From the IMG/VR virus record IMGVR_UViG_2534681674_000028, positions 1 to 40,960 of that record: a stretch of 40,960 bases of DNA; one strand, written 5' to 3'. Source of the stretch: a virus (Duplodnaviria > Heunggongvirae > Uroviricota > Caudoviricetes). Below, in pieces: positions 9,001 to 12,000 of the stretch; position 1 is the stretch's first letter; every line of letters begins with the position of its first letter. A program made the position numbers.

Positions 9001-12000
9001 CGAAGCGTGGTTAACGCATTCAGCCGCCCCCTCTCTTGATTCTATCCGCGAAAACCCAAACAACGGACGCTCCATTTCACAGGTTCGCGCCGCGATTCGA
9101 TCCGGGAAGTAATCTGCATGACATATGAAGTCATCATTACTCCTGAGGCCGAAGAACAAATAATCAACCTGCACAGATATATAACGGAGAAAGCAGGGAA
9201 CGTCATTGCTGACAATTTTGCCAATGCGCTTCTTGATTATCTTGATGGGTTTTCTACATTCCCGCATCGGGGCAATAAACGCGATGATATTCGCCAGGGG
9301 ATGCGGGTAACTCATTTCCGCCACAGAACGATTATTGCTTTTGCCGTTGATGGCAGAAAAGTCTTTATTGTCGGTATCTATCATGGTGGGCAAAGTTATG
9401 AAACCGATTTCTTATAAACTTTTACCCACATCATTCCGGTGTTAGAATTAACCGTCCGCCCCCATCTCTTACTGGCGGATTCGTAGGCTATATAAATCAA
9501 AGATCCCGGCTCATGTTTGTGTCGGGATCTTTTTTCGGCGATTTATCCCCAGCGGCAAATCGAATACACCACCAGCGCCACCGCCATCGCAATTCCTGCC
9601 GTTGTGAATGCTTCAGGCCAGGTCATCGTAAAATATCCTCCACGCTTATCAGTCCGTTCCGCTCCAGATAACTCATCGCCTTATCCGGTAATTTGCAGTC
9701 TGGCTTCGCTTTCCTCAGTTGCCAGGTTAACTGCTTTACCAGCATGGTTAACTCATCGGCCAGACGCTGATATCCCACTGGTTTGTATTCATGCAATTTA
9801 CCGGCTGGCTCTGCTGCCAGCGATACCAGTGCGATTTCCAGAACAGCAATATCCATCTTATATGTGCGGATGATGTCATGGTCGATTGTGCCCGGTATGT
9901 GAACCGCCCCGGGTTTCCTGGAGAGTATTTTATCTGTGAACTCAGGCTGCCAGATCATTATTTCCGATGGAAGCATAATAAGCTTTTTCTGCTTCTGCCG
10001 GAGGAATATGGCCCAGCCTTTCCAGCAATCGTCGATTGTTATACCAGTCCACCCACGTTAGTGTGGCCAGTTCCACTTCTGTCCGGTTTTTCCAGCTATT
10101 ACGGTGTATTACCTCCGCTTTGTAAAGACCATTGATGCTCTCAGCCATCGCGTTGTCATACGAGTCGCCAGTACTCCCTGTTGATGCCAGTAATCCGGCT
10201 TCCTTAAGCCGCTGCGTGTAGGCCAGCGATACATACTGAGAACCTTTATCACTGTGATGGATTGTGCCGGACGGCCGACGGGCCCACAACGCCTGCTCCA
10301 GTGCATCCAGCACGAATGTTGTTTCCATGGATGATGAGACCTGCCATCCCACGATGTATCCGGCGAACACATCAATGATGAACGCCACATAAACGAAGCC
10401 CTGCCATGTGCTTACCCAGGTAAAATCAGCCACCCACAACTGGTCTGGACGTTCTGCCACGAACTGACGGTTTACGCGGTCGCATGCGGCAACGGCTTTC
10501 CGGCTGACGGTAGTGCGGACCTTTTTACCCCGGAGAACACCGGCAAGTCCCATAACTGCCATGAGACGTGCCACAGTGCATCTGGCCACTCTGATACCTT
10601 CCCGTAACAACTGACGCCAGACTTTACGCACACCGTATACCTGGTGATTTTCATCGTATACGCGCTGTATCTCTTTCTTCAGCCAGTCATCGTGCTGCGC
10701 ACGGGCACTGCGTTTATCCGGATGATGTCGCTGTTGCTGACAATGGTAATACGTTGACGGGGCAATATGCAGTTCGCTGCATACCGGTCCGACCCCGTAC
10801 TGCTCACGCAGCTTATCCAGCAGTGGCATCATTTTTTTCCAGAGGCGGTCGAACTCCGCCTTCGCAAAATAAGCGGAAGCCTGGCGAAGGATATCGTTAC
10901 TGCGGCGCAGTTCACGATTTTCACGTTCCAGCTCTTTCAGACGCTGACGTTCAGCGCTGGTGAGCCCACCATCACCGCCCCCGGTATCCCGCTCATGCTG
11001 GCGAACCCAGACACGCAGAGTCTCCGGCGTACAGCCAATCTTTGGGGCAATGGAACAAATTGCCGCCCACTGTGAGTCATATTCATCCTGACTTTCCAGA
11101 ACCATACGAATCGCCCGCTGACGGACTTCGGGGGAAAAACGAGTATTTTTAGTCATCCTGTTTACCTCTTTCTCAGGGAGTTTAGTCTCCAGGATTTCCG
11201 GGGCGGTTCAATGCACAGTCTCTGTGCTTCAATAGTCTCCTCTGCGTGAGCTATTAACTGCTCTCTGGTAAAAGTCGTCATGCCGCGTTTCCTTCTTTCT
11301 TATTAACAATTACACCGTCATATATTTCATTAAGGTGCCCTCTCAACTCCATGCGCCTTAATGCAGACAACATGTAATCGCATTCAACCTGCTTATTCCC
11401 AATAAAAGGTTTATCTTCAGGGTTACCCCAACAGCAATTCCCCTTGGGCCACCCATGTACTTTCCGTACGCTTCCGTTAACAACGTGAAGTAATCCCCAG
11501 CCAGGTGGTAAATCCTCAATTGAAATAATTCCCGGCTCACTAATAAAGAATCGCCAGTCGCCCATTCCAAGAGACGGATTTTTACGAAAACGCTTTTTTC
11601 TATCTGCCAACAAGTCAGCACGAGAACATTTCGCCTCTATCAGGCATGATGCTGAATTTCTGAATCCCATAGCATCTGGCTGTTCTCCGGTACTGGTTAC
11701 AGCTATAAAGCGGTCATGAAAACAAACCTTGAACCCGTTGCGCTTAAGGAACTTGTACGCAATCTGACAGAGTTCGCGGTGTGTTAACGCCATATCACTC
11801 TCCTTTGATGCGAATGCCAGCAAGCCAGTTTCTTATGCCGATATATTCAGCGTTCCTGAAACCGCTTTTTACATATATAAATGGCAAGCGAAGATTGTGA
11901 CCATTGACTGCCAGGTAGTCTTTACAACCCTGTTCGGTGAAACAGCAGGTAACGAATTCATCAATATCTTTCACAGCAACGCGCCGCCATTTTTCTGGTG

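Follow-up and report, generated by a model that had tools for sequence, protein, structure and literature searches.

A one-base A-run extension fuses orfA and orfB in an O26:H11-type IS629 copy in a draft Escherichia coli prophage sequence

Introduction

Elements of the IS629 group, IS3 family, carry orfA in reading frame 0 and orfB in frame −1, and programmed −1 frameshifting links the two. A 40,960-nucleotide stretch of DNA, positions 1 to 40,960 of the IMG/VR virus record IMGVR_UViG_2534681674_000028 (hereafter the window), contains an IS629-like insertion sequence (IS), copy 1, in which orfA and orfB form one open reading frame (ORF). An earlier note on this DNA took the copy for a naturally fused transposase with an altered slippery region that would escape control by OrfA. 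The locus therefore raises the question of whether the fused frame belongs to the element or to the draft sequence, and of what it would do if it were genuine. Here we describe a fusion that is present in the deposited sequence and hinges on a single base in an otherwise ordinary element, and we argue that this base is, on balance, probably a miscall.

Results

The fused frame depends on the length of one A-run

The fused frame of copy 1 is real in the deposited sequence. The ORF list gives an uninterrupted orfA-orfB frame of 404 aa at 9942–11156 on the minus strand, which is deposited as EIG92334.1 / WP_001365165.1. Its product scores 361.6 bits against the NCBIfam model NF033516 for IS3 family transposases (transpos_IS3; cut-off 160) and contains the Pfam domains HTH_Tnp_1, HTH_21, rve and rve_3, so that the N-terminal helix-turn-helix (HTH) and the C-terminal DDE (rve) catalytic domain of the IS3 family and IS629 group are both present. 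At the junction copy 1 reads CTCTGG-AAAAAAA-TGATGCCA, and the two other copies in the window, copies 2 and 3, read CTCTGG-AAAAAA-TAATGCCG. The run of seven As (A7) at 10832–10838 on the minus strand (nt 373–379 of the element, T7 on the plus strand) is the longest homopolymer in the element, and it is a run of six (A6) in every close relative. Because of this extra A at the end of orfA, orfB lies in the orfA frame, and copy 1 has one continuous frame in place of two joined by frameshifting; the two-frame layout (0/−1) is present in the A6 twin of copy 1 and in copy 3. The ORF list, together with the alignment of the three copies and the A6 relatives, bears out the earlier note both on the single 404-aa frame in the copy at 9900–11210 and on its dependence on A-run length.

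The ALIL frameshift-stimulating pseudoknot region in the orfA/orfB overlap is intact in copy 1 (10758–10875, minus strand; stem I at 10844–10860). It matches Rfam family RF01497 over its full length with 115.8 bits against a gathering score of 50, and a single-sequence fold shows both stems. Judged by sequence identity, copy 1 still belongs to the IS3 family and IS629 group, and only the fused allele departs from that definition.

Copy 1 is a genuine insertion into a prophage gene

A pattern search with both end sequences found exactly three copies of the element in the window, and 100 shuffles of the window gave no match to either end sequence. Copy 1 occupies 9900–11210 on the minus strand (1311 bp; ends TGAACCGCCCCGG...CCGGGGCGGTTCA), and its ends read TGAACC...GGTTCA, in line with the 5′-TG...CA-3′ termini of the group. 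The imperfect inverted repeats of about 25 bp that are typical of the group are found as a left repeat (IRL) at 11186–11210, TGAACCGCCCCGGAAATCCTGGAGA on the minus strand, and a right repeat (IRR) at 9900–9924 on the same strand, TGAACCGCCCCGGGTTTCCTGGAGA, which agrees with IRL at 22 of 25 positions; both are the same in all three copies. The 3-bp target-site duplication of the group is also present, as ATG at 9897–9899 and 11211–11213, from the flanks and from reconstruction of the empty site. Deletion in silico of the IS and one ATG restores a 114-aa ORF on the minus strand, the 3′ part of which lies at 9623–9899 and the 5′ part at 11214–11281 (start codon ATG at 11279–11281). A gap-free alignment pairs the restored ORF, at 95.6% identity, with the intact gene for the hypothetical protein WP_033804843.1 in a related prophage of E. 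coli 2015C-4498. Since ATG stands on both flanks and removal of the element restores the ORF, copy 1 is a genuine transposition event, its target being a small gene in a lambdoid prophage that E. coli 97.0246 carries. Membership of IS629 and the IS3 family and a real insertion with an ATG duplication, both claimed before, are therefore upheld.

Copy 1 is an ordinary O26:H11-type element with one extra base

Copy 1 differs from copy 2 at 46 alignment positions and from copy 3 at 44 (about 96.6% identity to both), and all of these differences fall in its first 950 bp. Across 5,426 complete E. coli genomes its best matches were 1310-bp elements of O26:H11 and related strains. It agrees with the 1310-bp copy of E. 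coli 2013C-4974 at 1310 of 1310 positions, with one extra A; it differs from the copy of O26:H11 strain 11368 by one substitution and the extra A, two positions in total, which gives 99.9% identity to O26-type copies, and from that of phage BP-4795 by one substitution besides the extra A. The copies of 2013C-4974 (located in yeeJ), 11368 and BP-4795 have the inverted repeats, the TGATG junction and the ALIL region as in copy 1, whereas in copy 1 the extra A leaves orfA without its stop codon and brings orfB into frame. Because all the O26-type relatives read A6-TGATGCCA, the TGATG junction is the normal state of the isoform. Three sub-types of IS629 have been described, namely IS1203-like (I), Shigella-like (II) and O26:H11-like (III) (Rump et al. 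2011, PMC3271280); copy 1 fits sub-type III, and copies 2 and 3 the IS1203 type.

As far as its sequence goes, copy 1 is thus an ordinary O26:H11-type IS629 whose sole departure from the canonical 1310-bp element is an A6 recorded as A7. The description of an altered slippery region was overstated, given that TGATG and CCA make up the normal O26-type junction and only the length of the A-run is unusual. That copy 1 differs at several residues is correct (the transframe proteins of copies 1 and 3 differ at 10), but on the alignments these residues are an isoform difference from copies 2 and 3 and unrelated to the fusion. Copies 2 and 3, which had been taken as normal comparators, do both have the two-frame layout, but orfB of copy 2 is broken by a private extra A of its own. 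Copy 2 lies at 26657–27967 on the plus strand (1311 bp; orfA intact; target duplication CCC), and copy 3 at 30570–31879 on the same strand (1310 bp) with a canonical orfA (108 aa, frame 0) and orfB (295 aa, frame −1).

Two candidate slip sites and the products predicted from each

The orfA/orfB overlap of IS629-type elements holds two candidate −1 sites, one on each side of ALIL stem I (nt 351–367 of the element). The TTTTG site (nt 342–346, TAT_TTT_G; 10865–10869 on the minus strand in copy 1) is 5 nt upstream of stem I; the A-run site (nt 373–378) is 5 nt downstream of stem I and has stem II 35 nt downstream of it. TTTTG is favoured as a natural slip site on several counts: its canonical spacing to a 3′ stimulator, its conservation in the Rfam ALIL consensus, where the A-run position is not conserved, the ranking of the tetramer U_UU.U above A_AA.A for slippage in E. 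coli (Sharma et al., PMC4066793), and its use in reference proteins. NCBI reference proteins of the family use either the TTTTG junction or the A-run junction (...LWKK|LMPLL), and one of them, WP_414836175.1, is what a TTTTG slip yields in the isoform of copy 1, but for one difference. Since public references use either junction, 404-aa ‘transposase’ entries do not stand for a single consistent product. Fusing the frames through the A-run does not give the protein that a TTTTG slip gives.

Computed translation of the A6 twin gives OrfA of 108 aa in frame 0, a 404-aa protein after a −1 slip at TTTTG, and a second 404-aa protein after a −1 slip in the A-run, which differs from the first at residues 98–107. 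Copy 1, with its A7, yields in frame 0 a 404-aa protein that is the same as the one the twin makes after an A-run slip; slipping by −1 at TTTTG or in the A-run (...LWKKNDATAG) ends translation after 114 aa. If A7 is real, the 404-aa protein that normally comes from a slip in the A-run would be the default product, authentic OrfA and the TTTTG transframe product would no longer be made, and OrfA-like truncations of 114 aa would arise at frameshift frequency only. The proposed escape from OrfA-based control would then hold in part, with authentic OrfA lost and the A-run transframe protein made constitutively; the escape would be incomplete, because a TTTTG slip in copy 1 ends after 114 aa and the TTTTG form of the transposase would be lost too, so that the change would not be mere deregulation. 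One of the two IS629 frameshift products is reportedly responsible for transposase activity, and the other is said to have a stabilising helper role. If A7 is a miscall, the element would behave as any IS629: translation of orfA would end at its stop codon, and a minority of the ribosomes, aided by the ALIL pseudoknot, would shift by −1 in the overlap and so produce the 404-aa transposase.

The fused allele is on record from a single contig

An exact-protein look-up covering 153 billion gene positions found the 404-aa ORF of copy 1 on one contig only, AEZJ02000027.1 of the draft assembly GCA_000194215.2 (E. coli 97.0246), where the gene neighbourhood around it is that of the window; the same fused allele was therefore not seen in two or more independent assemblies or loci. 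When the IS with both flanks was searched for, none of the complete E. coli genomes had an IS at the copy 1 site, no place covering 80% or more of the query. Further 404-aa candidates were taken from a 90% protein cluster, and those database entries that were checked proved to be conceptual frameshift joins, not contiguous translations. An entry found on 99 contigs (junction KKLMPLL) was rejected as a true fusion on the same ground: it spans 1214 nt, has no contiguous translation and is a conceptual join made by the Prokaryotic Genome Annotation Pipeline (PGAP).

The A7 junction itself is rare. For a 77-bp query centred on it, nine full-length exact matches were listed out of about 22,140 places in complete E. 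coli genomes; plasmid records gave six among 2,962, and phage records none among 169. A scan of GTDB species-representative genomes for the A7 junction had no hits, and in IMG/VR there was one A7 stretch against at least 118 with A6. All other A7 elements are of other isoforms, at least 50 positions away from copy 1, and many occur in assemblies (PNUSAE assemblies, SCU-306 and 32-4) where the same IS, or genes beside it, show additional frameshifts. The only IMG/VR contig with an A7 junction (IMGVR_UViG_2548876964_000015, 9586–10057) shows eight indels in 473 bp of IS, with no substitutions, relative to copy 1, and is a clear case of an apparent A7 in sequence laden with homopolymer errors. 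Between them, these frameshifted assemblies and this contig make A6 to A7 a demonstrable mode of assembly error. The A7 elements of the PNUSAE assemblies, UMNK88 and plasmids were also considered as one active fused lineage; this was set aside as unreliable, as several have further frameshifts in the IS and frameshifted neighbouring genes.

Other private indels in the window give a mixed picture

The second private insertion, that in orfB of copy 2, lies at about 27603–27605, where copy 2 reads GGCACAAATCC and the other copies read GGCACAATCC; among 11,973 places in complete E. coli genomes, none matched this allele exactly at full length. Private single-A insertions are thus found in two of the three IS copies of the contig. 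Over 11.6 kb that are 99.8–100% identical to two complete genomes, all four indels private to the window are homopolymer length changes, specifically shortenings (A7 to A6, T4 to T3, TT to T and T8 to T7) at 38649–38690, all falling in 45 bp of AT-rich intergenic sequence. In this shared stretch OkiPb01713 is free of private indels. In an 8.7-kb comparison with E. coli FRIK1989, nine isolated 1-bp gaps fall in the window and two in FRIK1989. Two of the nine split genes that are otherwise intact in FRIK1989: that for a DNA methyltransferase (4559–5616, now ORFs 4834–5616 and 4559–4837) and that for a DUF6645 protein (2066–3915, now ORFs 2548–3915 and 2066–2602). These gaps are either prophage decay or assembly errors, and the close relatives as a whole sort the draft neither as clean nor as error-prone.

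Genomic setting

The right third of the window is 99.8–100% identical to E. coli 2013C-4974 (O5:H9, sequence type ST342; PMC12113909) and OkiPb01713, which places E. coli 97.0246 in their lineage. It comprises a degraded prophage integrated at ompW (27968–40960) that carries type III effector genes and ISEc8, with nleF at 28971–29540, nleH1-2 at 29606–30526, nleA at 33652–34974 and the ISEc8 transposase gene at 39025–40563. The sites of copies 2 and 3 are empty in 2013C-4974 and OkiPb01713, both of which carry an O26-type IS 120 bp to the right instead; on these grounds IS629 has been mobile recently in this lineage. The O26-type IS of the relatives has the target duplication GTC, and in 2013C-4974 an internal deletion of 12 bp; its site is empty in the window (31985–32010). 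The target duplication of copy 3 is imperfect, CCC (30567–30569) and ACC (31880–31882), and the empty site in the relatives reads gacatCCCCCgtacatg.

Near copy 1, a 117-aa ORF at 9623–9976 on the minus strand starts at an ATG inside the right end of the element and runs past the IS boundary to enter the 3′ part of the disrupted gene, a potential IS-driven hybrid product. A ParD/ParE toxin-antitoxin pair (8792–9417, plus strand) lies beside the insertion in the prophage; the source contig shows the Pfam domains ParD_antitoxin and ParE_toxin, and 2015C-4498 has this pair annotated as well. Further along, three consecutive minus-strand ORFs (14328–14741, 14742–15152 and 15153–15896) share one frame with single stop codons between them and could be abutting genes or one gene with in-frame stops. 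A tRNA scan of the window found no tRNA genes.

Discussion

Copy 1 departs from a known element by one base, and variants of this kind are already in public annotation and have already been made in the laboratory. Real A7 and homopolymer miscall are separable by the sequencing reads only. On the sequence comparisons we lean, a little beyond even chances, towards a homopolymer length miscall in draft sequencing or assembly as the origin of the extra A. The grounds are that A7 in finished genomes is uncommon and in part artefactual, that the allele is a singleton, and that the same contig has both another private +1 A and further private homopolymer length changes. E. coli 97.0246 presumably belongs to a batch of pyrosequencing and short-read drafts of 2011–2012, in which case a miscall would gain further weight. 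Several observations pull the other way. The draft has no isolated indels in 10.5 kb relative to 2013C_3653 and none in 2.6 kb identical to OkiPb01713, so that, over these approximately 13 kb, it is not uniformly error-prone; it also gets all 44 isoform-specific differences of copy 1 right, and no sequence feature proves an error. The A-run, as the longest homopolymer, is as likely a place for a real slippage mutation as for an error; related isoforms have fused alleles that are real and inherited; and recent insertions might be enriched in a fused copy if its product is cis-preferential.

The explanation that competes most directly with a miscall, which we regard as possible although the less expected outcome, is that the extra A is a real private A6 to A7 slippage mutation that arose in copy 1 before or after its insertion. 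The A-run transframe protein would then be the default product, and OrfA, the TTTTG-slip product and any termination-coupled OrfB would be lost. The ORF is intact over all 404 codons, its product identical to that of an A-run slip in the A6 twin, and the inverted repeats, target duplication and ALIL region are intact as well; AAAAAAA runs are prone to indel mutation and to transcriptional slippage (PMC4066793), and heritable A7 alleles of a related isoform occur in 11 extraintestinal pathogenic E. coli (ExPEC) genomes, at one locus in the three examined, and on two metagenome contigs. Set against this are the singleton status of the allele in one draft assembly, a base rate in finished genomes of about 0.1% of places or less, part of which is error, and the private +1 A of copy 2; that only one contig of the assembly encodes the protein is a weak point, as drafts collapse IS copies. 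A real A7 could act in either of two directions. It could increase, in trans, the transposition and the IS-excision-enhancer (IEE)-dependent excision of all IS629 copies, or, if the TTTTG product is the main transposase, it could leave copy 1 unable to mobilise itself. We think it unlikely that A7 is genuine and copy 1 a natural switch allele that re-tunes or raises IS629 transposition and IEE-dependent excision genome-wide in trans. Were that so, a strain with dozens of IS629-family copies would make one transframe protein constitutively, with OrfA and the other transframe protein abolished, and would put the two-product model of IS629 regulation to a natural test.

It is very improbable that copy 1 was fused before insertion, as a member of an established O26-type A7 lineage with A7 donors elsewhere in the genome. 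IS3-family transposases are reported to be cis-preferential (IS911; PMC5009743), which would favour the spread of a self-activating copy, and the insertion sites that differ from those of the closest relatives point to recent IS629 activity; yet the complete genomes contain no other O26-type A7 element, the other A7 elements being so distant in sequence, the close relative 2013C-4974 has the identical isoform with A6, and the fused protein is encoded on one contig only of the source assembly. A mis-assembled chimera, in which reads of different IS copies were merged into an artificial consensus, deserves the least credence of all. Multi-copy repeats of 1.3 kb were hard for drafts of that era, and two of the three IS copies have odd single-base insertions, but copy 1 follows one known isoform along its whole length with no isoform switch, its flanks have a clean 3-bp duplication and a restorable target gene, and A7 is not obtainable by merging A6 copies. 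A homopolymer miscall thus remains our preferred explanation. More generally, one-base changes of the A-run in IS629-type elements are a recurrent assembly error and should not be taken for biology without read support. If A7 is true, the strain would have a natural allele with which to find out which of the transframe products is responsible for transposition and excision of IS629 in an enterohaemorrhagic E. coli (EHEC) background.

Comparison with known fused alleles and related systems

As an example of a naturally fused transposase copy 1 would not be new, since RefSeq already annotates several, one allele of which is carried by the 11 complete ExPEC genomes (including clone D i2, clone D i14, DA61218, AH25, SCU-112 and W150). 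These have A7-TAATG and an uninterrupted 404-aa ORF (WP_001555244.1, WP_077250290.1), which PGAP names plainly ‘IS3 family transposase’, with no programmed frameshift. The ExPEC allele resembles copy 1 in its A7, its 404-aa ORF, its intact ends and its annotated ALIL element; unlike copy 1, it is of another isoform, about 5% diverged (65 nt and 27–28 aa differences), has the TAATG junction and lacks a target duplication. In clone D i14, AH25 and W150 it lies at one locus, adjoining hha and an AlpA-family gene, and the ExPEC A7 junction is the one found on the two metagenome contigs. As it is common to independent assemblies, the ExPEC allele is real and inherited. The genomes that carry it hold one to three IS629-like places each, from which a fused frame alone causes no burst of transposition, a point that also counts against a consequential A7 in copy 1. 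UMNK88, ECO_1_S, EC052 and PNUSAE014970 likewise have intact fused ORFs that RefSeq annotates without a frameshift.

A laboratory counterpart is the engineered single-frame OrfAB of IS1203v/IS629, termed ‘artificial frameshifting’ (Kusumoto et al.). As summarised in a later preprint, IS1203v excision in O157:H7 was about 1e-3 with OrfAB alone, 2.6e-6 with the native arrangement and 3.8e-9 with orfA alone (bioRxiv 10.1101/2023.06.07.543989). The construct is like copy 1 in giving transposase without frameshifting. It is reported to give approximately 400-fold more excision than the native arrangement, and its effect when expressed alone argues for a real A7 having consequences and makes a trans-activating effect plausible. 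It differs in being laboratory-made and expressed from a plasmid, and its junction may or may not match the A-run of copy 1. As to the two −1 frameshift products of IS629 (Chen & Hu 2006, J Biol Chem 281:21617), copy 1 contains both signals, TTTTG and the A-run, and its ORF corresponds to the A-run product; unlike the two-product element, copy 1 would be unable to make the TTTTG product. In fused-frame mutants of IS1, IS3, IS911 and IS150, one base added in or near the slippery run gives constitutive transposase and loss of the inhibitor. Those mutants were engineered, usually with altered slippery codons, whereas copy 1 keeps both slip sites and the pseudoknot.

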